The notes: generated by a model from the letters alone, not told the origin. A stretch of DNA of 48,437 bases from Candidatus Nomurabacteria bacterium (GCA_943356375.1 CALRET010000001.1:1-48437); one strand, 5' to 3'. Shown: positions 5,928-21,163, numbered from the stretch's first letter. A program made the numbers and translations.

Positions 5928-6779
5928 ATGACAAAGAAGAAAGAATCGATCACTGCTCGTCCAAAATGGAATGCGGAAAGGAAAGTCTTTATTATCCCAA
6001 AAAAATCCGGTTACACAAAAGAAGAATCCGAGGTGATTGGATACATAGGGGAGCTCTTGGTGTGTATGGCCGAAGATATGCATATTTCGGTAGAAAAAAT
6101 TCTTGCGCTCAGGGATTATCACAGTAATCCAAACCCAGATATTAGTGCTGCGCATCGATTCCTACTCAGGTTTATATATGAACATTTTCCAACTGCGATA
6201 CACTTGTTTCTCATTGTGTTATCAAAGACAGAAGAGAAAATGAAGCGATTTATTATTCATCAAAATCGATTCTTCTCTGACCCGACACACGAGATATCGT
6301 TTGATCGATATAACGGAATGTTTAAAAAACAGCATCCGGTTATCAGAAAAATTGTCTTTCCGAAACGCACCATTGCTATTCCTGAAGAGGTACAAGAATT
6401 CAAAATTCCTGAAGCGTTTAAAAAAGTGTCTCCAGTAGATCTCATTGAAATCATTTTTGAAACAGTGAAAGAAAAATTCAATATTGATCTTACGGTGTAT
6501 ACACTGGGCACTAAAGATAAATGCATCCCATACAATCTGTATGTATCGAGGAAAATAAGCATCGGTATCATCCTATTAACCTACGGAGAAAATTTTTCCT
6601 TCGTTGAGCTCCATAGACAGTTTGCTGGACGCTTGGAATATTCACAGATAAACAGCTCTATTGATCACTATAAAAATGAACATCACAAATGCATAATGGA
6701 AGATGCGGTATATAATATTTTATATGCGATTATCTATACTGCTATTCTCCAAAAAATAGAAGTCAAAAAAAGCCCTTGA
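5928..6779 (+). CDS. Hypothetical protein, paralog 2, with DnaA-domain-IV-like C-terminal HTH
   Basis: VSRKISIGIILLTYGENFSFVELHRQFAGRLEYSQINSSIDHYK follows the DnaA domain IV pattern. The N-terminus RPKWNAERKVFIIPKKSGYTKEE parallels paralog 1. Confidence 0.4.
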   Translation: MTKKKESITARPKWNAERKVFIIPKKSGYTKEESEVIGYIGELLVCMAEDMHISVEKILALRDYHSNPNPDISAAHRFLLRFIYEHFPTAIHLFLIVLSKTEEKMKRFIIHQNRFFSDPTHEISFDRYNGMFKKQHPVIRKIVFPKRTIAIPEEVQEFKIPEAFKKVSPVDLIEIIFETVKEKFNIDLTVYTLGTKDKCIPYNLYVSRKISIGIILLTYGENFSFVELHRQFAGRLEYSQINSSIDHYKNEHHKCIMEDAVYNILYAIIYTAILQKIEVKKSP

Positions 6780-6811: not shown

Positions 6812-8521
6812 ATGATTACTGAAACTATACAGTCTGGAGTGACAAAGGCTTTGCAATCGCTCGGTCTCGAAGGCGATATCCGCCTTGAACATCCAGCAGA
6901 TCTCTCTCATGGAGATTATTCTACTAATGTCGCTTTTGTACTTGCAAAAAAAGAAGGTGAGAATCCTCGCGCGCTTGCAGAGAAAATCTGCGTAGAACTT
7001 AATAAAAATTTACCTCCTGAAATAGAAAAAATTGAAATCGCTGGTCCAGGATTTATTAATTTTTATTTATCAAAAATTTTTTTTATTGAACGTGTTAACT
7101 ATATTACAGCAAAACCAGATGAATGGGGGACAAACAAAATGCTTGCTGGTAAAAAAATAATGGTTGAATATACGGATCCAAATCCATTCAAACCATTTCA
7201 TATTGGGCATTTAATGACTAATACAATTGGTGAATCTATTGCACGTATTACTGAGGCAAATGGTGCAACAGTCGTTCGAGCAAACTATCAAGGTGATGTC
7301 GGACTTCATGTTGCAAAGGCGATATATGGCATGTTGAAAGAGGGTGGACCAGACGGAATGCTCCCGGCATCCCTACAAGCTGAGATTATCGGTACACGTT
7401 ATTCATGGGGTTCGAACGAATATGATACAAATGAAGAAACTAAAAAAGAAATCGATGCAATAAACAAAAAGATATACGAAAAAAGTGATAGTGAAATAAA
7501 TATTTTATATGAACACGGCAGAAAAGTTACCCTTGAGGCGTTTGAAGAGATATATAAATTATTGGGAACAAAATTCGTGCACTATTTCTTTGAATCAGAT
7601 ATGGCTGTCGTTGGGGCACAGATTGTAAAGGAGCATACAGGTCCTGTATTTGAAGAATCAGATGGTGCCATTGTCTTTTATGCTGAAAGATATAATCCAA
7701 AATTAAATCCGCGCGTGTTTATTACTGGCGCAGGACTCCCGACATATGAATGCAAAGAACTCGGTCTGACAAAAACAAAATTTGAAAAAGAAAATCCAGA
7801 TCTTTCCATAGTTATAACTGCAATAGAACAAGACAACTATATGAAAGTGGTTACCACTGCGCTCTCAGTTATTGCGCCAGATTGGGCATCTCGCATGAAG
7901 CACATTACACATGGAATGATGCGTTTGACCTCTGGTAAAATGTCTTCACGCAAAGGAAATATTATTACCGGCGAATCCATAATACGTGATTCAATTGCAT
8001 TAGTTGCAGAAAAAGTCGTAGAACGTGAAATGAGTGGAGATGATAAAAAGGCGATCGCACAGATTGTCGGTGTTGCTGCGCTCAAGTACTCAATTCTCAA
8101 ATCTTCAATCGGTTCGGATATCGTGTATGATCCAGAGAAATCAATTTCATTTGAAGGAGATTCGGGACCATATCTACAGTACACAGCAGTACGTGCACAG
8201 TCTATTATTGCAAAAGCGGGGAACAGTAAAATTATACAAGAAGTAGAACCGATAGAGGGTTATGTGATTACTAATTTAGAAAAAATAATATATGGATTTG
8301 AAGAAGTGGTTATCCATGCAAAAGAAGAATTCCAGCCACACCATATTACGACTTACTTAACAAAACTCGCGAGCGAATTTAACTCATTTTATGCAAATAC
8401 TAAAATTTTAGTTGATGATAATCCTTATAAAGACTATCATCTTGTACTAGTGAGTGCATTTTATATAACTATGAGAAATGGTCTTTATTTATTAGGTATT
8501 CAAACTCCGGAAAAAATGTAG
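6812..8521 (+). CDS. argS: Arginine--tRNA ligase
   Basis: Class I HIGH motif (PFHIGHLMTN). ArgRS N-terminal add-on domain (HPADLSHGDYSTNVAF). DALR-like C-terminus ending in M. 569 aa. Confidence 0.9.
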   Translation: MITETIQSGVTKALQSLGLEGDIRLEHPADLSHGDYSTNVAFVLAKKEGENPRALAEKICVELNKNLPPEIEKIEIAGPGFINFYLSKIFFIERVNYITAKPDEWGTNKMLAGKKIMVEYTDPNPFKPFHIGHLMTNTIGESIARITEANGATVVRANYQGDVGLHVAKAIYGMLKEGGPDGMLPASLQAEIIGTRYSWGSNEYDTNEETKKEIDAINKKIYEKSDSEINILYEHGRKVTLEAFEEIYKLLGTKFVHYFFESDMAVVGAQIVKEHTGPVFEESDGAIVFYAERYNPKLNPRVFITGAGLPTYECKELGLTKTKFEKENPDLSIVITAIEQDNYMKVVTTALSVIAPDWASRMKHITHGMMRLTSGKMSSRKGNIITGESIIRDSIALVAEKVVEREMSGDDKKAIAQIVGVAALKYSILKSSIGSDIVYDPEKSISFEGDSGPYLQYTAVRAQSIIAKAGNSKIIQEVEPIEGYVITNLEKIIYGFEEVVIHAKEEFQPHHITTYLTKLASEFNSFYANTKILVDDNPYKDYHLVLVSAFYITMRNGLYLLGIQTPEKM

Positions 8522-8741: not shown

Positions 8742-8874
8742 AAAATAACTATATACCTCAATCTAAAATCGGTCAATTTTTTGCTAACAAAGCCGGAATA
8801 TGTCTTGATGAAATCCACTTGGACTTTCCGTAGTGAACAGGTACGATAGTGTCAGACCAAATAGTTTTTTACCA

Positions 8875-9978
8875 ATGGAAAAGCTTAAAATTTATGTTGG
8901 TTGCGCACTCAAACATGCATCCCTAGAATACAAACAGAGGATCGCTTTGTTTAAAGAACAGTTACCTAAACATCTCAATTGTGAAATTCTTGAATTTGTC
9001 ACTGAGTCAGATGCGACACCAAAAGAAGTTTACAATAATGATATTGGAGGATGTGTCAAAGAATGTCACCTGATGGTTGCCGATGTTACTCATCCATCAC
9101 TTGGTTTGGGGTATGAGACAGGAACGATAGTTGAGAAATATAAAAAACCAGTTTTGTTTTTAGCTGAGACCGGTTCATTGGTTTCGAAAGTGATTCTGGG
9201 TGTGCCAAATGCTGAAATTCATGATTATGAAAGCATTGATGAAATGATTTTGGCAGTGGTTGCGTTTGTTGAAAAACACAATATTCAAGCACCGACTCGT
9301 GGAAAGCTGATCGTCATCGAAGGTATTGATGGGTCAGGAAAAACAACACAGCAAGGACTTTTGATGGAACGACTCAAGAAAGAAGGGAAACGAGTTGAGT
9401 CACTTCATTTTCCACGTCACGGAGAAAAATTCTTTGGTGTCATGGTTGATGAATATCTGATGGGTAAGTTTGGACACGCATCTGCAGTCAATCCATATCT
9501 TGCATCAGTACTCTATGCGGGTGATCGGTGGGAGGCAAAGCCACAGATTGAGCAATGGTTGAATGATGGGGTGTATGTGGTTCTTGATCGCTACGATACT
9601 TCGAACAAAGGCCATCAAGTTGGAAAGTTAAAAACCGAGGAAGAAAAGCTTCAGTGTTTGAGATGGCTTGATGAATTGGAATACAAAACATTTAAAATTC
9701 CGGTTCCTGACAAGGTGTTATACCTTGATCTTCCACTTGAGAAGAATCTTGAACTCATTGCAAAGAGAGGAAGCAAGGGTAAGGAGTACAGCAAAGGAGG
9801 TGCTGACCAACATGAAAACAGAGAGCATTTATCAAACGCTCAGGCAGCGTATCGATTTGTCGTGAACCAGTATTCATACTGGCAGAAGATCTATTGCGCT
9901 CCGACCGGAGAACTTCGCACAGTTGAAGATATCCACGAGGAAATCTATGCAGCAGTTGCTGAAAAGGTATATGCCTAA
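8875..9978 (+). CDS. tmk: Fusion protein: nucleoside 2-deoxyribosyltransferase/DNPH1-like domain + dTMP kinase
   Basis: The N-terminal half (KIYVGCAL...MVADVTHPSLGLGYETGT...KKPVLFL) matches the deoxyribosyltransferase-like fold with a conserved Glu. The C-terminal half has LIVIEGIDGSGKTTQ (P-loop), FPRHG and DRY, as in thymidylate kinase. ATG at 8875 preferred over GTG at 8833. Confidence 0.65.
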   Translation: MEKLKIYVGCALKHASLEYKQRIALFKEQLPKHLNCEILEFVTESDATPKEVYNNDIGGCVKECHLMVADVTHPSLGLGYETGTIVEKYKKPVLFLAETGSLVSKVILGVPNAEIHDYESIDEMILAVVAFVEKHNIQAPTRGKLIVIEGIDGSGKTTQQGLLMERLKKEGKRVESLHFPRHGEKFFGVMVDEYLMGKFGHASAVNPYLASVLYAGDRWEAKPQIEQWLNDGVYVVLDRYDTSNKGHQVGKLKTEEEKLQCLRWLDELEYKTFKIPVPDKVLYLDLPLEKNLELIAKRGSKGKEYSKGGADQHENREHLSNAQAAYRFVVNQYSYWQKIYCAPTGELRTVEDIHEEIYAAVAEKVYA

Positions 9979-11057: not shown

Positions 11058-14000
11058 ATGGAAGAAAACAATCAAAACAAATCAACCGTAGCTCTCGAAC
11101 CTAAACACACCAAGTCTAGTGCATCGGTCAGGGAGGAAGCAGTTTTGCAATTCTGGAAAGAAAATAATGTATTTGAAAAAACATTAGAAAAAGAATCTCC
11201 AAAAGGTGATTTCGTTTTCTATGATGGTCCACCAACAGCAAACGGAAAGCCGGGAATTCACCATCTCGAACCGCGCGCATTCAAGGATGCGATTCCTCGC
11301 TATAAAACAATGCAGGGATTTCATGTGCGCCGTAAAGGGGGATGGGATACACATGGATTGCCAGTGGAACTTCAAGTGGAAAAAGCGCTCGGACTCAAAT
11401 CAAAAAAAGAAATTGAACAATACGGTATTGAGAAATTTAATGCCGAATGTCGAAAAAGTGTCTGGACTTATATTGACGAATGGGAGAGATTTACCGATCG
11501 CATGGGGTATTGGATCGATCATGAGAATCCATATCGAACGTATGACAATTCATATATTCAATCGCTCTGGAATGTCGTCAAAAAAATAGACGATCAAAAC
11601 TTGCTATATAAAGATTACAAAGTTGTCCCATATTGTCCACGCTGTGGAACCGCTCTTTCTTCTCACGAACTTGCACAAGGATATCAAGATGATACAGATC
11701 TTTCAGTTACAGCAAAATTTAAAATCGTTGGTGTTGAAAATGGATATTTTTTAGCTTGGACAACAACACCATGGACACTTCCAGGTAATGTTGGATTGGC
11801 TGTAGGTAGTGATATTACGTATGTTGAAGCAAAAGTTGGTAATCAAATTTTAGTACTTGCAAAAGACCGCCTTTCAATAATTACTGAACCTTACGAAGTT
11901 GTTGCGGAACATAAGGGTTCAGAAATGGTTGGCATGCAATACGAACCACTGTATCCATATCTTGCAGAGCTTGATAAAGGAGATGAGAAATTAAATAACG
12001 CATACAAGGTGTACGCGGCAGATTTTGTGACCACAACTGATGGTACTGGAATTGTTCACACTGCTGTTATGTATGGACAAGAAGACTTTGAACTCGGAAC
12101 AAAAGTTGGATTACCAAAATTCCACCTCGTAAATCCAGACGGAACATTCATTACTGGCACTGGTATCTTTGAAGGAAGATTTGTAAAAGACGAAGCAGTT
12201 GCAGTGGACGTCATCAAAGACCTTGCACACAGAGGATTACTATTCAAAAAAGAAAAATATACGCACAGTTATCCGCATTGCTGGCGCTGTTCGACTCCGC
12301 TCATCTATTACGCACGTGATTCATGGTATATCGGCATGTCAAAACTCCGCGATAAACTTGTTGCAGAAAACGAAGGTATTAATTGGGAACCATCTCATGT
12401 AAAAGAGGGTCGCTTTGGCGAATGGATTCGCGAAGTGAAAGATTGGGCGATTTCCCGTGAACGATATTGGGGAACGCCACTTCCTATTTGGGTTGCGGAA
12501 GACGGAGAAAAATTTGTCGTTGATTCGTTTGAAACATTGAAGAAATATACCAAGAAATCAGGAAACAAATATGTTGTCATGCGACATGGTGAATCGACTC
12601 ACAATGTGGATTGGTTATGTAGTTCTGTTGCGGGTTATCCTCATCATCTTACTGATAGTGGTAAGGCAACAGTTCTAGAGACGGCACAAGAATTTAAAAG
12701 TAAAAATATTACAGCAATATACTGTTCTCCCTTTCTCCGTACAAAAGAAACAGCAGAGATTGTCGCTGATGCGATCGGCTTCGACAAGTCAAAAATAATC
12801 TATGATGATCGGATTGCTGAATTTAAATTCGGTGATTTTCATCTGAAACCATTTCCAGAATATATAGCATGGAGAAAAGAAACAGGAGACTCTATTGATT
12901 TACAAGCACCAAATGGAGAGAGTATCTCAGATGCGCGTCATCGTTTTGCATCATTCTTTTATGATATTGATCAGCAACATAAGAATGAAACTGTTTTAGT
13001 TGTTACTCATGGCATCGGACTTGAAACACTTCCGGCCGTTGAGTGTGGATATGATAAAAAACAGATGTGGGAGAAGTGGCACATGAATCTGGTTGCTCCA
13101 GGAAAATTTCAAGATTTCAATTTTATTCCATTACCACACAATGAGATCTATGAACTTGATGTACATCGACCATTTATAGATAAGATTGTCCTTGAGAAAA
13201 ACGGTAAGCAATTTACGCGTGTTAAAGAAGTCATGGATGTCTGGTTTGATTCTGGTGCGATGCCGTTTGCACAGGATGGGTATCCGTTTCTCACTGACAA
13301 GATGTATTATCCAGCAGACTTCATTGCCGAAGGGCTCGACCAAACACGCGGTTGGTTCTATACACTCCATGCTGTGGGTGCACTCATGGGTACAGGGAAG
13401 GCATATAAAAATGTAATCTGCCTTGGGCTTATTCTTGATAAAGATGGTAAGAAAATGTCGAAATCAAAAGGAAATGTCGTTGATCCGTGGATGATGATGG
13501 ATAAATATGGCGCCGACACTCTCCGCTTGTGGATGTATGCGGTGAACCAGCCAGGGGATTCAAAAAACTTCGACGAGAAAACTGTTGCAGAACTTCATAA
13601 CAAAGTATTTAACCTGCTCTATAACGTACTCGCATTCTACGAGCTGTATCGTGATAGAGAACTTGAACGTGATATTGATGCTGATCCTGCAACTTCCACT
13701 AATCCTCTGGATCAATGGATATTTGTTCGACTGGCAGAATTGACAGAAACTATGACGGCAAATCTAGAAAGTTATAAATTGCTTGAACCGGTTCGTGCGA
13801 TGCGTGAATTCATCGACGATCTTTCGACGTGGTATGTTCGCCGATCACGTGATCGATTAAAAGAAGGATCTCTCGTTTCTAAAAAAACTTTGTACGTAGT
13901 CTTAAAAACTGTTGCAAAGTTACTTGCACCATTCGCACCTTTTGCTGCAGAGGATATTTGGCAACGACTCCGTCAGTCATCAGATGAACTTTCAGTTCAC

Positions 14001-14528
14001 CTCGTATCTTGGCCGGAGTCGCAGGTTCTAGTTTCTAGTGGCGAGGTTCTAGAAAAAATGCGAATTGTACGAGAAATTGTATCTTTAGGATTAGAAGCAA
14101 GACAGAAAGCGGGAATTAAAGTTAAACAACCACTTAGTAAATTAAAAGTTAAAAATGAAGAGTTAAAAAGCGAATACCTAGAACTTATAAAAGAAGAATT
14201 GAATATAAAAGAAGTTGTTTTTGGTGATGAATTTGAACTCAATACTGAAATAACTGAAGAATTAAAGAAAGAAGGGCAGATAAGAGAACTTATTAGAGGC
14301 TTTCAAGATGAACGTAAACGATTAGGCCTAAACCCAGCTGATGTGATTAATCTCTTGGTTGAAACTGATAATAAGGGAAATGAAATTATAGAATTATTTA
14401 AAGACGAAATTAAAAAAATAGTAAATATTAGGGAACTTTCATTGCAAAAAAATGAAGGGGATATAATTTCCATTGATGATATGAATTTCAAGTTTTCTAT
14501 AAAAATGCTCTATACTAAAGAGGTATGA
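11058..14528 (+). CDS. ileS: Isoleucine--tRNA ligase with an inserted histidine-phosphatase domain
   Basis: HIGH-type motif (GKPGIHHLEP), WGTPLPIW, DVWFDSGAMPF, DQTRGWFYT and KMSKSKGN. 1156 aa. Residues ~505-700 form an extra RHG...SPFLRTKET...VTHG domain. Confidence 0.9.
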   Translation: MEENNQNKSTVALEPKHTKSSASVREEAVLQFWKENNVFEKTLEKESPKGDFVFYDGPPTANGKPGIHHLEPRAFKDAIPRYKTMQGFHVRRKGGWDTHGLPVELQVEKALGLKSKKEIEQYGIEKFNAECRKSVWTYIDEWERFTDRMGYWIDHENPYRTYDNSYIQSLWNVVKKIDDQNLLYKDYKVVPYCPRCGTALSSHELAQGYQDDTDLSVTAKFKIVGVENGYFLAWTTTPWTLPGNVGLAVGSDITYVEAKVGNQILVLAKDRLSIITEPYEVVAEHKGSEMVGMQYEPLYPYLAELDKGDEKLNNAYKVYAADFVTTTDGTGIVHTAVMYGQEDFELGTKVGLPKFHLVNPDGTFITGTGIFEGRFVKDEAVAVDVIKDLAHRGLLFKKEKYTHSYPHCWRCSTPLIYYARDSWYIGMSKLRDKLVAENEGINWEPSHVKEGRFGEWIREVKDWAISRERYWGTPLPIWVAEDGEKFVVDSFETLKKYTKKSGNKYVVMRHGESTHNVDWLCSSVAGYPHHLTDSGKATVLETAQEFKSKNITAIYCSPFLRTKETAEIVADAIGFDKSKIIYDDRIAEFKFGDFHLKPFPEYIAWRKETGDSIDLQAPNGESISDARHRFASFFYDIDQQHKNETVLVVTHGIGLETLPAVECGYDKKQMWEKWHMNLVAPGKFQDFNFIPLPHNEIYELDVHRPFIDKIVLEKNGKQFTRVKEVMDVWFDSGAMPFAQDGYPFLTDKMYYPADFIAEGLDQTRGWFYTLHAVGALMGTGKAYKNVICLGLILDKDGKKMSKSKGNVVDPWMMMDKYGADTLRLWMYAVNQPGDSKNFDEKTVAELHNKVFNLLYNVLAFYELYRDRELERDIDADPATSTNPLDQWIFVRLAELTETMTANLESYKLLEPVRAMREFIDDLSTWYVRRSRDRLKEGSLVSKKTLYVVLKTVAKLLAPFAPFAAEDIWQRLRQSSDELSVHLVSWPESQVLVSSGEVLEKMRIVREIVSLGLEARQKAGIKVKQPLSKLKVKNEELKSEYLELIKEELNIKEVVFGDEFELNTEITEELKKEGQIRELIRGFQDERKRLGLNPADVINLLVETDNKGNEIIELFKDEIKKIVNIRELSLQKNEGDIISIDDMNFKFSIKMLYTKEV
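12570..13026 (+). other. Histidine phosphatase (phosphoglycerate-mutase-like) domain embedded in IleRS
   Basis: YVVMRHGESTHN (RHG motif), CSPFLRTKETAE, AEFKFGDF, NGESISDARHR and LVVTHGIGLE. All canonical catalytic positions of the His_Phos_1 fold are readable. Confidence 0.75.
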
Positions 14529-15268
14529 AATTAGTCACACTTAACACATGGGGAGGGAAGATAAAAGAACCGCTTATTAAATTTATTCAGAATAAATCAA
14601 AAGAAATAGATATCTTCTGTTTTCAAGAGGTGTATTCTGATGCAAAAGGGAAGATTAGTGAAGTTGATTTTCCAGGAAGAGTGTTAGATCTTTTTCAAAA
14701 TGTTCAATCAGTATTAACTACACATACTGGTTTCTTTAAACCAAACACCTTTGACCATTACGGAGTTGCTGTTTTTATACAAAGAGATATTAAAATTCTT
14801 GAAGAGGGTGATATTTTTATTTACAAAAAAAGTGCAGAAGATTATGTTGATGAAGACGGTTCTAATCATCCACGTAATCTACAGTATGTTCTTCTGGAAA
14901 AGGAGAGTAAAAAGTTTGTTGTGGTAAATGTGCATGGACTTTGGACTGGTACCGGAAAGAAAGATACAGTAGAAAGAATTGAACAGTCAAATAAAATAAA
15001 AGAGTTCTTATCTCGATTTGATTGCCCAATTATTCTTGCTGGTGATTTCAATCTTGAACCAGAGACTGAAAGTGTCAGGATTCTCGAAAGTGGTATGAAG
15101 AATCTTATTAAGGAATATAATATTAAAAATACACGAACTTCGCATTATACAAAAGAAGGACGTTTTGCTGATTATATATTCACGAAAGATATGCACGTTA
15201 CTGATTTTAAGGTATTACCAGATGAAGTATCTGATCATGCACCGCTCTATTTAGATTTTGATATATGA
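14525..15268 (+). CDS. Endonuclease/exonuclease/phosphatase (EEP) family protein
   Basis: LVTLNTWGG, FCFQEV, VVNVHG, LAGDFN and SDHAPL motifs. ATGA overlap with the ileS stop. Confidence 0.7.
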   Translation: MKLVTLNTWGGKIKEPLIKFIQNKSKEIDIFCFQEVYSDAKGKISEVDFPGRVLDLFQNVQSVLTTHTGFFKPNTFDHYGVAVFIQRDIKILEEGDIFIYKKSAEDYVDEDGSNHPRNLQYVLLEKESKKFVVVNVHGLWTGTGKKDTVERIEQSNKIKEFLSRFDCPIILAGDFNLEPETESVRILESGMKNLIKEYNIKNTRTSHYTKEGRFADYIFTKDMHVTDFKVLPDEVSDHAPLYLDFDI

Positions 15269-15807
15269 AAACACTGATTATAGATAATGGTTCAAAATGG
15301 ATTACCCAGCTCTGCGAATTGATTGTTGATGAAAAAGTTATTATTGGTATGAAGGATATTTCTTCTGTTGATACTGAATCATTTGATTTAATAGTTCTGT
15401 CCGGATCCCGTAACGGACCATCTGTCCTCACTAATGATCTTTTGGGTGAGGAGTTCGATCTGGTTAAGAAATCCCAAATTCCAATTATTGGCGTGTGCTA
15501 TGGAGCGGAGGTTATCGTCTATAGTTATGGTGGACTACTCGAACGAATGGATGGAGATCACAGAGGGGTAACGACTCTTCATCTCATAGAAGGAAAAGAT
15601 GTAAAAGTATACGAAGCTCATCATTTCAGAATCAAAAAACTTCCGGAAGATTTTATTGTATTAGGGAGAACAGAGCATGCAATTGAATTCTTCAAGCATG
15701 TACATAAACCAATTTACGGACTTCAGTTTCATCCGGAAGCTTTTGTGGATAGTACGGAAGGGAAGGAAATCCTTATGGGAATTATTAGTGATATAATGAA
15801 AAAGTGA
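15265..15807 (+). CDS. Class I glutamine amidotransferase (GuaA-N-like, stand-alone)
   Basis: IIGVCYGAEV (nucleophile Cys) and GLQFHPE (His-Glu). ATGA overlap with the upstream gene. Confidence 0.65.
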   Translation: MKTLIIDNGSKWITQLCELIVDEKVIIGMKDISSVDTESFDLIVLSGSRNGPSVLTNDLLGEEFDLVKKSQIPIIGVCYGAEVIVYSYGGLLERMDGDHRGVTTLHLIEGKDVKVYEAHHFRIKKLPEDFIVLGRTEHAIEFFKHVHKPIYGLQFHPEAFVDSTEGKEILMGIISDIMKK

Positions 15808-16427
15808 AAAAAGTAATTATTGTACATGGCTGGGGATTTACACCAGAAGATAATTGGTATCCATGGTTAAAAGGTGAACTTATCGAGCGAGGTTTTGACG
15901 TAGTCGTTCCGGAAATGTCAGAAACATTGGTACCACATATTACTGTGTGGGTGGATAATCTCAGGGAAGCAGTCGAAAATTCTTCGGAAGATATGATACT
16001 TATTGGGCACAGTATTGGATGTCAGACCATTATTCGCTATCTCGCAGAGACAGATAGACTAAACCATTTTGATAAAAATGGTCGTCCGATCAGCAAAGCT
16101 GATTTAGGAAAAGTTATTTTAGTTGCTGGATGGTTTCAGTTGGACAGGGGAGTTATTGATGAGGAAATTAAAAAATATGGACAGATAGTTAGAGAGGTGG
16201 CAGATGAATGGGAGCAGACGCCAATTGATTTTGAAAAAGCGAAAAGTAATTGCGCAGATATTTCAGTGTTACTTTCTTCAAATGAACCATATGGTTGTGT
16301 TTCAGAGAACAAGAAAGTATTTGAAGAAAAACTCGGGGCAACTGTTACAGTTCTTGAAAACAGCGGACATTTCACTACTGATGATGGTATAACTGAAATT
16401 CCTGAAATTTTGGAATATATAAAATAA
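15804..16427 (+). CDS. Alpha/beta serine hydrolase (YdeN/RBBP9-like)
   Basis: VIIVHGWGFTPEDNWYPWL and the nucleophile elbow LIGHSIGC. GTGA overlap with the upstream gene. Confidence 0.6.
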   Translation: MKKVIIVHGWGFTPEDNWYPWLKGELIERGFDVVVPEMSETLVPHITVWVDNLREAVENSSEDMILIGHSIGCQTIIRYLAETDRLNHFDKNGRPISKADLGKVILVAGWFQLDRGVIDEEIKKYGQIVREVADEWEQTPIDFEKAKSNCADISVLLSSNEPYGCVSENKKVFEEKLGATVTVLENSGHFTTDDGITEIPEILEYIK

Positions 16428-19255: not shown

Positions 19256-21163
19256 ATGGAGGATCACCGAGATAGAATTGAAGAAGCGAAAGAAAAACTC
19301 TACAGTCGAAACGTAGATGCTATTCGTGTAAGAAAAGATCGTGTTCTCAAATCTATTGAACATATTGTTCCTGAGTCTTGGCAAGTTACTCCCGAGAAAA
19401 AAATGAAAGTACAAAAACTACTTCTTGATACATCAGTATTTAAAAAGTTCTTCCTATTCTGCCTTGCCATTCTAGGACTTTCGATTGTCGTCGCAGGGTT
19501 TGTTTTCTTGAAAGGGACGGGAACAGTCTCAACTGATAATGTTGAAATAGAAATCCTTGGTAATGCATTTACCGAAGGTGGCGCTGAACTTCCAATTCAA
19601 ATACAAGTTATTAATAAAAATGCCACACCACTTGAGCTCACTGACCTTTTTGTGGAATATCCACGTGGGTCTGATGGTATGACCAACCAGGATTTTGAAA
19701 GAAAACGTATTTCCATTGGTACTATTGGTGCCGGGAAAAGTGCACAGGAAATTATTCCACTCACTCTATACGGTGAAGAAGGTGTTGTGCAGACTATCCG
19801 CGCTCGTCTCGAATATCGCATCAAAGGATCAAATGCAATATTCGTAAAAGAAAAAACATATGATGTATCTATTTCGAGTGCTCCACTTGAATTGGCAGTT
19901 ACTGCACCTGCAAGCGCAAGTTCTGGAGAAGAAATTACTTTCAAGGTTGTTTTGAGATCACATGCAGCAAAAGTTTCTCCGCGCATGCGATTGGTTTTTG
20001 AATTTCCTCCAGGATTCGAACCGACTACATCTATTCCCGAAGCATCTTCTGGTGATACCATCTTTGATCTTGGAGATCTTCCACCTGATGCAGAAAAAAC
20101 AATAATTGTTAAAGGTGTCCTTCAGGGTATTGATGGAGATGAAAAAATGTTCCGTGTGTATAGTGGTGAAGGTGATCCGAAAGACGATTCTAAAATTGAT
20201 GTGGTCTACAATTCAACACTGCATACCATGGTGATCGATCGTCCATTTATTGAAGCACGACTACTGATCGGTAACAAAGATTCAGATGTGTATGCCGCAC
20301 GAACAGGGTCTCCGATTAACGCGAAGGTAAAATGGCAGAACAATCTCCCAGAAAAAGTTATTGACGCTGAAATATCTGTTTCTATAGATGGTAATGTATA
20401 CAAAGAAGACACACTGAAGACTGATGGATTCTATAACGCAGTAACTAATACAATTAGTTGGAACAAAAATATTGATAGCAAATTCGCATCTGTTGAACAA
20501 GGTGAAGGTGGTACCCTCGATCTATCATTTAATACACTTCCTTTGGTAACAGGACAGGGGACAGTGATTTCAGATCCACATGTCACTATTACCGTTTCTA
20601 TTCGCGGCAAGACCGCGAGCAGTGGATCTATTTCAGAAATCAATAATTCATCAACCAAAACAATTAAAATCATCACTGATACACAATTTACTTCTGTTGC
20701 ATCATTTACCAGTGGTCCATTTGTAAACAGTGGCCCACTTCCTCCATCGGTTGATGATAAGACAACCTATACAATAACCTGGAGTATCAAGAATACTGCA
20801 AGTCCACTCGGTAGTGGTGTTGTTCGGGCGGTGCTTCCACTCTTTGTTTCTTGGGAAAATACAACAAGCCCTACGAATGAACAAATAACCTTTGATGAGG
20901 CAACTCGCGAAGTAACTTGGAACACTGGAACTGTTCAGCAAGGGTCAGGATTCAGTGCTCCACTCAAAACCGTGTCATTCAAAGTTGGACTAACACCAAC
21001 ACAAAATGAATTGGGCCTCGTGCCTGAACTTATTGGTGAATCGGTATTAACCATCCGAGACTTGTATACGGGTGTTGATATATCACTCAAGAGAAATCCA
21101 CTCTTAACACGTATTACCAGTGATGGAACCTTTGTCTTCGGAAAAGAAACAGTGGTTGAATAG
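19256..21163 (+). CDS. Membrane-anchored, beta-rich extracytoplasmic protein (hypothetical)
   Basis: 635 aa. One N-terminal TM helix (FFLFCLAILGLSIVVAGFVFL), then a long Thr/Ser/Val-rich region. Confidence 0.5.
   Translation: MEDHRDRIEEAKEKLYSRNVDAIRVRKDRVLKSIEHIVPESWQVTPEKKMKVQKLLLDTSVFKKFFLFCLAILGLSIVVAGFVFLKGTGTVSTDNVEIEILGNAFTEGGAELPIQIQVINKNATPLELTDLFVEYPRGSDGMTNQDFERKRISIGTIGAGKSAQEIIPLTLYGEEGVVQTIRARLEYRIKGSNAIFVKEKTYDVSISSAPLELAVTAPASASSGEEITFKVVLRSHAAKVSPRMRLVFEFPPGFEPTTSIPEASSGDTIFDLGDLPPDAEKTIIVKGVLQGIDGDEKMFRVYSGEGDPKDDSKIDVVYNSTLHTMVIDRPFIEARLLIGNKDSDVYAARTGSPINAKVKWQNNLPEKVIDAEISVSIDGNVYKEDTLKTDGFYNAVTNTISWNKNIDSKFASVEQGEGGTLDLSFNTLPLVTGQGTVISDPHVTITVSIRGKTASSGSISEINNSSTKTIKIITDTQFTSVASFTSGPFVNSGPLPPSVDDKTTYTITWSIKNTASPLGSGVVRAVLPLFVSWENTTSPTNEQITFDEATREVTWNTGTVQQGSGFSAPLKTVSFKVGLTPTQNELGLVPELIGESVLTIRDLYTGVDISLKRNPLLTRITSDGTFVFGKETVVE

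Follow-up and report, generated by a model that had tools for sequence, protein, structure and literature searches.

Why should an isoleucyl-tRNA synthetase (IleRS) carry a second enzyme within its own catalytic body? The question is raised by ileS in a stretch of 48,437 nucleotides from Candidatus Nomurabacteria bacterium (GCA_943356375.1 CALRET010000001.1:1-48437; the whole stretch is referred to below as the window), where an earlier note, made from the DNA sequence alone, had recognized a histidine-phosphatase domain between two conserved synthetase motifs. The analysis reported here indicates that the domain is a complete and probably active phosphatase, that it recurs at the same place in hundreds of related genomes, and that it is maintained by purifying selection. 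It probably represents, in fused form, a phosphatase whose gene is a partner of the IleRS gene, and it behaves as a modular cassette.

A predicted histidine phosphatase inside ileS

The gene, the insert and the residues on which the argument depends are as follows (amino acid positions are those of the IleRS protein):

11058..14528, plus strand: ileS, type-2 isoleucyl-tRNA synthetase of 1156 aa, host of the insert (open reading frame and profile matches)
12558..13130, plus strand: inserted histidine-phosphatase cassette, aa 501-691, 191 aa (alignment with the insert-less relative P0009 and with PDB entries)
12573..13073, plus strand: Pfam His_Phos_1 (PF00300), aa 506-672 (E=2.2e-28, 99.7 bits, cut-off 21.7)
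12582..12587, plus strand: R509-H510 of the RHG motif, aligned with the RHG of PhoE; H510 is the predicted phospho-acceptor nucleophile
12738..12740, plus strand: R561, second phosphate-binding arginine (by conservation)
12819..12821, plus strand: E588, predicted general acid, aligned with the Glu of PhoE 'LREIHLGDWEG'
13008..13010, plus strand: H651 of the THG motif, second catalytic histidine (by conservation)

The limits of the insert are set by two alignments. Residues 18-497 of the window protein match residues 6-477 of Priestia megaterium IleRS2 (8c8w) and residues 699-1053 match 485-847, such that ~200 window residues stand where the P. megaterium enzyme has ~7; P0009, a metagenomic fragment of a close type-A IleRS without the insert, aligns as far as window residue 500 and resumes at residue 692. 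The ~190 extra residues that had been counted between the flanking synthetase motifs thus amount to 191, and the segment first delimited (12570-13154) begins 12 nt inside the insert and ends 24 nt beyond it, a difference that is immaterial. A profile search with PF00300, proposed earlier as a check, is positive for this segment on its own (E=6.2e-30, 104.8 bits, cut-off 21.7).

All four motifs from which the domain had been recognized are present and hold the catalytic residues – RHGES (R509, H510), SPFLRTKETA (R561), AEFKFG (E588) and VTHG (H651) – and all five residues align to the catalytic residues of PhoE. When the insert is modelled alone with AlphaFold2 (AF2) the mean predicted local distance difference test score (pLDDT) is 95.5 and the predicted template modelling score 0.92; within the model of the full-length enzyme, pLDDT is 91-97 for the insert and 93-96 at both junctions. 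The predicted fold (AF2 and Foldseek) is an alpha/beta/alpha sandwich of the dPGM/PhoE type. Foldseek matches it with probability 1.00 and template modelling (TM) scores of 0.73-0.79 to PspA, PhoE, CobC, TIGAR and dPGM, with PspA (4ij6, TM 0.79, root-mean-square deviation (rmsd) 2.4) and PhoE (1h2e and 1ebb, TM 0.73-0.77) prominent among them and the riboflavin-pathway phosphatase HFP also among the best matches: the nearest structural relatives are all small-molecule phosphatases. At ~190 aa the insert belongs to the short-lid class (the dPGMs matched by Foldseek measure 230-250 aa), and inserts as a group are acidic (mean pI 5.7, net charge -6).

Profile, model and structural comparison together bear out the original reading of a complete phosphoglycerate-mutase-like enzyme in ileS: aa 501-691 form a complete histidine phosphatase of branch 1, of the short type exemplified by PhoE, PspA and CobC, and are predicted to be catalytically competent. 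No named subfamily can be assigned from the profiles compared. The best-scoring, the alpha-ribazole phosphatase CobC (TIGR03162), gives 74.1 bits against a cut-off of 162.9, and both dPGM profiles fall short of theirs (pgm_1, TIGR01258, 22.8 vs 81.7; dPGM_arch, NF038349, 65.9 vs 225). The same is true of PspA (NF045917, 62.7 vs 350), even though PspA is the best structural match; no substrate specificity shared with PspA is therefore claimed.

Host enzyme and insertion site

Further features of the host enzyme bear on where the phosphatase sits. CP1, CP2 and CP3 are connective-peptide subdomains of the synthetase.

11253..11264, plus strand: G66-I-H-H69, a non-canonical GxHH variant of the class I HIGH signature (from sequence)
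12438..12473, plus strand: CP2-CP3 linker KDWAISRERYWG, aa 461-472 (putative, by match to the Saccharomyces cerevisiae IleRS linker)
12474..12557, plus strand: N-terminal half of CP3 (beta-hairpin and helix), aa 473-500, with the zinc-knuckle cysteines lost
13131..13223, plus strand: C-terminal half of CP3 (LPHNEIYELDVHRPFID and beta-hairpin), aa 692-722, where alignment with insert-less IleRS resumes
13452..13466, plus strand: KMSKS signature, aa 799-803, intact (from sequence)

The window protein scores 876.5 bits against TIGR00392 in an NCBIfam profile search (cut-off 621.4) and contains the Pfam domains tRNA-synt_1, Anticodon_1 and DUF5915 (aa 1061-1149). The editing-domain chain of Thermus thermophilus IleRS (1wk8) aligns to aa 208-407, indicating that the CP1 editing domain is present. 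Its top PDB sequence matches are type-2 enzymes (P. megaterium, 788 bits; T. thermophilus, 775 bits), and the same two are the best Foldseek matches of the full-length AF2 model (mean pLDDT 86.6), with TMt 0.81 for P. megaterium IleRS2 and 0.90 for T. thermophilus IleRS. By score, signature motifs, CP1 editing domain and C-terminal DUF5915 the host qualifies as a type-2 IleRS. Motifs on either side of the insert are in frame: WGTPLPIW (aa 471-478) precedes it, and HRPFID (703-708), DVWFDSG (727-733) and KMSKS (799-803) follow.

Both class I signatures are highly conserved. In an alignment of 81 homologues, K-M-S-K (799-802) is invariant and S803 is ≥90% conserved; around GIHH, P65 and H68 are invariant and K64 and H69 are ≥90% conserved. 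GIHH, in which the first and third positions of HIGH are swapped, is also the consensus of these homologues. GxHH is a natural variant in type-2 IleRS that raises the mupirocin Ki by up to ~1000-fold and is linked to hyper-resistance (PMC10485003). A second type of synthetase body in the same clade retains the canonical HYGH.

The CP3 subdomain follows CP2 and precedes the second Rossmann half (residues 473-534 in Candida albicans and 459-526 in S. cerevisiae; PMC7191050, PMC7955072), and in the S. cerevisiae enzyme the linker 453-ARDWNVSRNRYWG-465 lines the pocket taken by reveromycin A, which sits in the tRNA(Ile) binding site (PMC7955072). The window's KDWAISRERYWG would correspond to this yeast linker. 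From the linker match and the published definitions of CP3, the insert is placed at the tip of CP3, a position that sequence alignment supports. Both halves of the interrupted subdomain are confidently modelled: strands at 477-479 and 485-487 and a helix at 491-497 before the insert (pLDDT 94-95), and strands at 711-714 and 717-721 after it (pLDDT 95-96). CP3 carries a zinc motif in T. thermophilus, and its topology varies among IleRSs, with or without zinc (PMC7191050). The zinc knuckle that had been mentioned for characterized IleRSs is the CP3 module in the T. thermophilus enzyme; the window protein is without the cysteines: where P. megaterium IleRS2 has CxxC...CxxC at the place of insertion, the window's have gone, and some insert-bearing relatives retain them.

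Distribution of the architecture

One genome per GTDB species was scanned with a query made of the insert plus short IleRS flanks. The architecture was found at ≥311 loci in GTDB species genomes, and the best 80 of these all match across both junctions. Wherever record titles name a taxon among the best 80, it is a member of the Patescibacteria (Paceibacteria), the lineages being Ca. Nomurabacteria, Zambryskibacteria, Kaiserbacteria, Vogelbacteria, Wolfebacteria, Paceibacterota and Parcubacteria.

The same material disposes of artefact. In ~75 of the best 80 loci one unbroken open reading frame (ORF) of 1100-1370 aa covers the whole enzyme, and in a search with the full-length protein each of the 120 best matches (59-90% identical) carries both PF00133 and PF00300; those with a name in the databases are entered as 'isoleucine--tRNA ligase' or as 'class I tRNA ligase family protein'. 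The window's own IleRS is deposited in NCBI and ENA (P0294), and the cassette recurs, 96% identical, in P0017, which comes from an independent JGI sample. Misassembly and frameshift are ruled out by the single ORF in ~75/80 independent loci and by the architecture of the 120 best protein matches. With flanking motifs in frame and recurrence in hundreds of independent assemblies, the insertion is internal and in frame, as had been argued, and is neither a terminal fusion nor a join between ileS and a separate phosphatase gene; nor is it a connective-peptide variant devoid of the RHG and second-histidine residues, for the catalytic set is intact.

Selection on the inserted domain

Except for the C-terminus, the insert is the least conserved large region of the protein. 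Against this background its catalytic set stands out: in the 81-sequence alignment only R509, H510, G511, G535, S557, R561, E588 and H651 are invariant within the insert, and R509/H510/R561/E588/H651 are retained in 81/81 homologues. In all, 346 domain copies were collected, 322 of which (every tandem copy included) hold the full R/H/R/E/H set; the remainder are truncated sequences or conservative E-to-D changes. Counted by residue, the first R and the H are each present in 342 copies, the second R in all 346, E in 331 (D in 13) and the second H in 341.

Within a cassette lineage the ratio of nonsynonymous to synonymous substitution (dN/dS) is 0.06-0.10, equal to that of the synthetase body: selection on the insert within lineages is strongly purifying. 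Residue conservation and these ratios together predict phosphatase activity.

A stand-alone form of the phosphatase

In related lineages the same phosphatase is encoded by a gene of its own next to ileS. The relevant neighbour in the window is:

6812..8521, plus strand: argS, synteny partner (Pfam tRNA-synt_1d, DALR_1, Arg_tRNA_synt_N)

Upstream of ileS, argS is found in 47/80 insert-bearing loci. On two JGI contigs of 325 kb and 208 kb (loci L082 and L083) the synteny is that of the window (argS ... ileS ... recO), and a stand-alone homologue, P0007, 39% identical to the insert, lies directly between argS and an ileS of 961 aa, 5 nt upstream of the ileS start, and this ileS is without insert and has an intact zinc-knuckle CP3. 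The gene in the first of these loci is:

L082 5974-6543: stand-alone phosphatase, with an in-frame ATG at 5974

Initiation at this ATG, which overlaps the end of argS, yields MKLNNKYYIMRHGE and restores the beta-1 strand. The conserved 'NKY-x-x-MRHGE' is thus part of the phosphatase, not of IleRS, and the start given for P0007 in the annotation probably lies 27 nt too far downstream.

A metagenome scan with P0007 gave 55 loci (including L086-L140) with homologues 47-63% identical to it, and in 55/55 the phosphatase is a stand-alone ORF of ~190-230 aa. Where flanks exist, argS ends a few nt upstream, and an insert-less ileS follows mostly 0-100 nt downstream (six loci have an intervening gene of 1-2.4 kb). 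Conversely, no second His_Phos was found within 6 kb in any of the best 80 insert-bearing loci. The stand-alone and inserted forms alternate, and in the loci examined were never seen together. Such alternation between gene neighbour and gene fusion (a 'Rosetta stone' pattern) signals a functional partnership between phosphatase and IleRS, which we infer on these genomic grounds. The linkage is specific: P0013 and P0014, generic stand-alone His_Phos proteins 31-34% identical, lie in unrelated neighbourhoods, and only the clade of P0007 type is linked to ileS.

Exchange of cassettes among ileS genes

If the insert had descended with its host, distances between inserts should track distances between bodies. 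Among 206 full-length enzymes they do not: the Spearman correlation with body distances is 0.05 for the insert, whereas the anticodon-binding domain gives 0.73, the C-terminus 0.51 and the editing domain 0.91. The ten bodies closest to that of the window (79-96% identical) hold inserts that are only 29-36% identical to its own, while the inserts most like the window's are found in L002 (60-68%, body 46%) and L001 (55-62%, body 71%). There are 111 pairs whose inserts resemble each other more closely than do their ultra-conserved bodies. Between L054 and L071, for example, bodies are 48% and inserts 86% identical, and it is in the insert that the DNA of these loci matches best (78% over 790 nt).

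The contrast is sharp in the comparison with P0018, where 30-aa windows along the protein are 97-100% identical on either side of the insert and 22-53% identical across it. For this pair synonymous divergence (dS) is ~1.3 and dN/dS of the body 0.027; because synonymous sites are near saturation, the pair alone does not prove replacement. That the insert merely drifts fast is contradicted by the absence of correlation, by inserts that are closer than their bodies and by the dN/dS of 0.06-0.10; the same three observations decide in favour of replacement of cassettes and against drift.

The cassette lineages are deeply diverged. At 40% identity the 346 domain copies fall into 67 clusters, and two deep body types carry cassettes at the same site: type A ('PPTANGKPGIHH'), to which the window belongs, and type B ('PPFATGTPHYGH'). 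The distance between types A and B is about that between type A and P. megaterium IleRS2 (442-546 vs 521 bits over the N-terminal half). From the sequences, recombinational exchange of ancient cassette lineages among ileS backbones explains the pattern best; differential loss from ancestral tandem arrays may have contributed.

Exchange may not be confined to the cassette. Between L008 and P0071 the opening ~30 residues and a large part of the C-terminal third (from ~aa 990) are 76-96% identical and the rest 23-66%; the ileS genes of the clade look like multi-segment mosaics, beyond cassette swaps.

Copy number, valyl-tRNA synthetases and other modules

The number of phosphatase copies in IleRS ranges from none to at least two. 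Some close relatives lack the insert (P0009), and others have two tandem domains: P0176 (found also on a 1.06-Mb contig), P0227, P0246, P0204 and P0207. Tandem copies that share a protein are only 25-35% identical to each other, and none has lost the catalytic residues.

Valyl-tRNA synthetases (ValRSs) of Patescibacteria also carry His_Phos inserts (P0286/P0206, P0138, P0296-P0306 and others, with ~15 further ValRS clusters). Their positions differ from that in IleRS, and three have been seen: after 'STLGWP', before CP2, and after 'WWGHRIPVWY'. In P0286 (1140 aa) the phosphatase comes after 'DTWFSSGLWTFSTLGWP'; P0138 has four copies, one before CP2 and at least three after 'WWGHRIPVWY'. Every known insertion site in either synthetase lies in a connective-peptide or second-half Rossmann region, and none is terminal or in the anticodon-binding domain.

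Other hydrolases are found in the same enzyme. The IleRS P0282 contains a Ser_hydrolase domain (PF06821, aa 562-734) followed by His_Phos_1 (872-1017), and a homologue is present as a separate gene near the window's ileS:

15804..16427, plus strand: stand-alone Ser_hydrolase (PF06821, E=1.2e-19), two genes downstream of ileS

Homologues of this gene are also downstream of ileS in five related loci, which points to a capacity of ileS to take adjacent hydrolase genes into its reading frame. In three loci – L017 (to 8544), L026 (to 8526) and L051 (to 8201) – an HD domain (PF01966, 30.3 bits), located in the C-terminal ~210 aa, replaces the last ~60 residues of IleRS, so that a CP3 histidine phosphatase and a C-terminal HD domain are combined in one enzyme.

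What the phosphatase may do

On the account we consider probable, the phosphatase would originally have been a neighbour gene (argS – phosphatase – ileS) that moved into the CP3 loop in the window's lineage; deeply diverged cassette lineages would have been swapped by recombination among ileS backbones, with related cassettes in ValRS at other sites. Catalysis is predicted to pass through a phospho-histidine intermediate: H510 would be the nucleophile, the phosphate would be bound by R509, R561 and H651, and E588 would serve as general acid. Through tethering or operon linkage the phosphatase would be co-localised with IleRS and co-expressed with it in stoichiometric amounts.

As to activity, our tentative preference, to which we would give somewhat less than an even chance, is for an autonomous phosphomonoesterase of small substrates that takes no part in the chemistry of aminoacylation. 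This reading is favoured because of the stand-alone form, the interchangeable cassettes, the variable copy number and site, the acidic surface and the small-molecule relatives. Exchangeability, variable copy number, the stand-alone form and the acidic surface also argue against tight geometric coupling to the tRNA end. The likeliest class of substrate would be a nucleotide, sugar or amino-acid phosphomonoester.

Several points weigh against this reading. Co-expression alone is usually met by operons or terminal fusions. That in-frame internal insertion has occurred repeatedly, and in two paralogous editing synthetases, suggests that a place close to the catalytic core is important; the HD domain recruited alongside points the same way. 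The length of the insert is tightly held (187-200 aa) and its junctions are gap-free across cassette lineages that are ~30% identical, which hints at a geometric constraint. Finally, with no specific NCBIfam subfamily cut-off reached, the substrate class is a guess.

The points on position, length and the HD domain leave room for two alternatives. In the first, the phosphatase is a third active site of the synthetase, acting on the tRNA acceptor end or on a ligand at the synthetic site. It might, for example, remove a 2'- or 3'-phosphate left by ribotoxins, or process a pyrophosphorylated CCA end, so that the tRNA is chargeable again. We regard this as unlikely, although the insert starts 29 residues past the CP2-CP3 linker, whose yeast counterpart lines the reveromycin A pocket at the tRNA binding site, and all known insertion sites in IleRS and ValRS lie in the regions described above. 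The rigid junctions of fixed length, the conserved linkage of argS and ileS, and the C-terminal HD phosphohydrolase domain added in some relatives also speak for it; in CCA-adding enzymes, HD domains act as 2',3'-cyclic phosphodiesterases and phosphatases. Yet the domain is acidic overall, its nearest structural relatives act on small molecules, and to our knowledge no histidine phosphatase acts on RNA ends. A stand-alone form, arrays of one to four copies and differing sites fit poorly with one precise geometry, and there is no evident reason why such a repair need should exist in IleRS and some ValRS only. A broader version, in which the domain is a dedicated extra active site of IleRS and ValRS, placed on CP3 beside the acceptor-end channel, that cleans (pyro)phosphorylated tRNA 3' ends or destroys a phosphorylated inhibitor or adenylate mimic, seems to us doubtful to the same degree. 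Were it true, an arms race would have left its footprint in the recombining cassettes, the arrays and the Ser-hydrolase and HD modules, and the enzymes would define a new class of repair or immunity function embedded in an aminoacyl-tRNA synthetase.

Self-defence is the second alternative, and we consider it improbable. Here the cassette would inactivate a phosphorylated inhibitor or toxin product directed against IleRS or ValRS, or would reverse phosphorylation of the synthetase by a toxin or phage kinase, and the diversity and exchange of cassettes would reflect an arms race. Many deeply diverged lineages have indeed been shuffled among hosts, with polymorphism in presence, absence and copy number, and other hydrolases (Ser_hydrolase in P0282; HD in L017, L026 and L051) have been recruited to the same enzyme. 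A GNAT gene lies directly after ileS in L081, NCBIfam holds an 'ileS_w_GNAT' family, and the GxHH motif of the host, linked to mupirocin hyper-resistance, suggests past pressure from inhibitors. Selection within lineages is however purifying and not diversifying (dN/dS 0.06-0.10), and we know of no phosphomonoester inhibitor of IleRS. Nor are defence-type genes conserved nearby, where the neighbours are housekeeping genes (argS, tmk, recO and a class II synthetase), although the PADLOC defence library was not searched.

It is very unlikely that the domain has a non-catalytic role (steric shield, ligand sensor or interaction platform) or is a neutral passenger in a permissive loop. CP3 is structurally variable among IleRSs (PMC7191050), the insert is dispensable in some close relatives (P0009), and its overall conservation is low. 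Against this, none of the five catalytic residues varies in the 81 homologues and the set is intact in 322/346 copies despite ~30-40% overall identity, while dN/dS is no higher than for the synthetase body. Decay would have been the fate of a neutral passenger.

The remaining possibility, an assembly chimera, a frameshift or a selfish intein-like element that is spliced out, is effectively refuted: an in-frame insertion in a conserved region of an essential gene, horizontally mobile and with a C-terminal junction that reads ...PHN|E, is superficially intein-like, but hundreds of independent assemblies share the architecture, Pfam (E≤0.01) detects no Hint, intein or homing-endonuclease (LAGLIDADG) domain in the protein, the 'P-x-N-E' is host sequence (PTNE in the insert-less P0009), a Glu after HN is not a splicing nucleophile, the His_Phos fold accounts for the whole insert, and the domain also exists as an ordinary stand-alone gene.

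Related systems

PhoE/YhfR of Geobacillus (Bacillus) stearothermophilus (1H2E, 1EBB) and PspA, a 'novel-type' phosphoserine phosphatase of Hydrogenobacter thermophilus (4IJ5, 4IJ6), share with the insert their fold, size (~200 aa) and catalytic residues. They are its best PDB sequence matches (E=5e-12 and 9e-11; structural TM 0.73-0.79, rmsd 2.4-2.8), at an identity of 24-30%; both are free-standing, whereas the insert is nested in another enzyme. Another related system is the bifunctional RNase H/acid phosphatase (NF005567, the mycobacterial Rv2228c/RnhC type), where a CobC/PhoE-like phosphatase is likewise fused to an enzyme of nucleic acids. NF005567 is the second-best NCBIfam match of the insert (66.8 bits, short of the cut-off of 326), and RNase H + His_Phos proteins (P0011, P0015) are among the insert's homologues. 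In that case, however, the fusion is terminal and the partner enzyme a different one, while the window has an internal insertion.

Type-2 IleRSs of P. megaterium (8C8U-W) and T. thermophilus (1ILE) resemble the host in type and in the organization of the DUF5915 C-terminus, and it is in type-2 enzymes that the GxHH signature variant has been studied. They differ at the site of insertion: ~7-35 residues with a CxxC...CxxC zinc knuckle, compared with a domain of 191 aa and no cysteines in the window. A precedent for an IleRS with an extra catalytic domain is provided by the enzymes with an embedded N-acetyltransferase (NF040702, 'ileS_w_GNAT'), where the GNAT domain would lie upstream of CP3, judging by a profile offset of +177 before window residue 319. 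The window protein is not of this kind: it scores 314.8 against a cut-off of 1999 and has no acetyltransferase domain in Pfam. Idiosyncratic insertions in class Ia synthetases, such as the CP1 editing domain and the leucine-specific domain of bacterial LeuRS, are domains nested in Rossmann loops that add catalytic or tRNA-related function. Those domains are ancient, vertically inherited and mechanistically integrated; the cassette in the window is confined to one clade, exchangeable, variable in copy number and found also as a separate gene.

A full-text literature search found nothing on an aminoacyl-tRNA synthetase with a histidine phosphatase or phosphoglycerate mutase domain, nor on such a domain in IleRS from the candidate phyla radiation (CPR), and the words phosphatase, Patescibacteria, CPR and CP3 are absent from a 2026 preprint on the phylogenomics of ~109,000 bacterial IleRSs. 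The architecture thus seems never to have been described, yet it is present, uncommented, in hundreds of database entries: the novelty claimed in the earlier note stands as regards published description, and is qualified by the fact that the arrangement is clade-wide and already in public databases.

Neighbouring genes

Immediately downstream of ileS the window contains a gene of the endonuclease/exonuclease/phosphatase (EEP) family:

14525-15268: EEP-family gene, which starts within the ileS stop codon (ATGA overlap)

Neither this gene nor the GATase gene is a conserved downstream partner, the former recurring in 1/80 loci and the latter in 0/80. At L081, the closest syntenic locus, the GNAT acetyltransferase gene that directly follows ileS takes the place of the EEP gene.

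Two other genes have unusual features. Between argS and ileS, the thymidylate kinase gene (8833-9978) encodes 381 aa, of which only residues 162-345 match Tmk; the N-terminal extension of ~160 aa has no Pfam match, and the same 381-aa form is present in L081. Further downstream, a 635-aa ORF with no Pfam match (19256-21163) lies just upstream of a class II synthetase gene (tRNA-synt_2b + HGTP_anticodon), and in L081 an ORF of equal length lies between a RecO_N gene and that class II synthetase gene.

Significance

Aminoacyl-tRNA synthetases are highly conserved and well studied, and new catalytic domains in their cores are rare. Synthetases with accessory domains are already known; what sets this case apart is the unusual evolutionary behaviour of a domain whose function is clearly selected. 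A whole clade of ultra-small, uncultivated bacteria keeps a phosphatase attached, genetically or physically, to IleRS and sometimes to ValRS. The alternation between neighbouring gene and insertion, together with the invariant catalytic residues and purifying selection, points to a functional partnership that is not predicted by current models of aminoacylation, editing or tRNA quality control, and the exchange of an internal domain as a cassette between backbones that are ~46% identical is an unusual mode of evolution for a housekeeping gene. The clade-specific insert could also be used as a marker. Action of the phosphatase on tRNA ends or inhibitors would amount to a new accessory function of synthetases; an independent metabolic role would mean that reduced genomes use essential genes as carriers for other enzymes.

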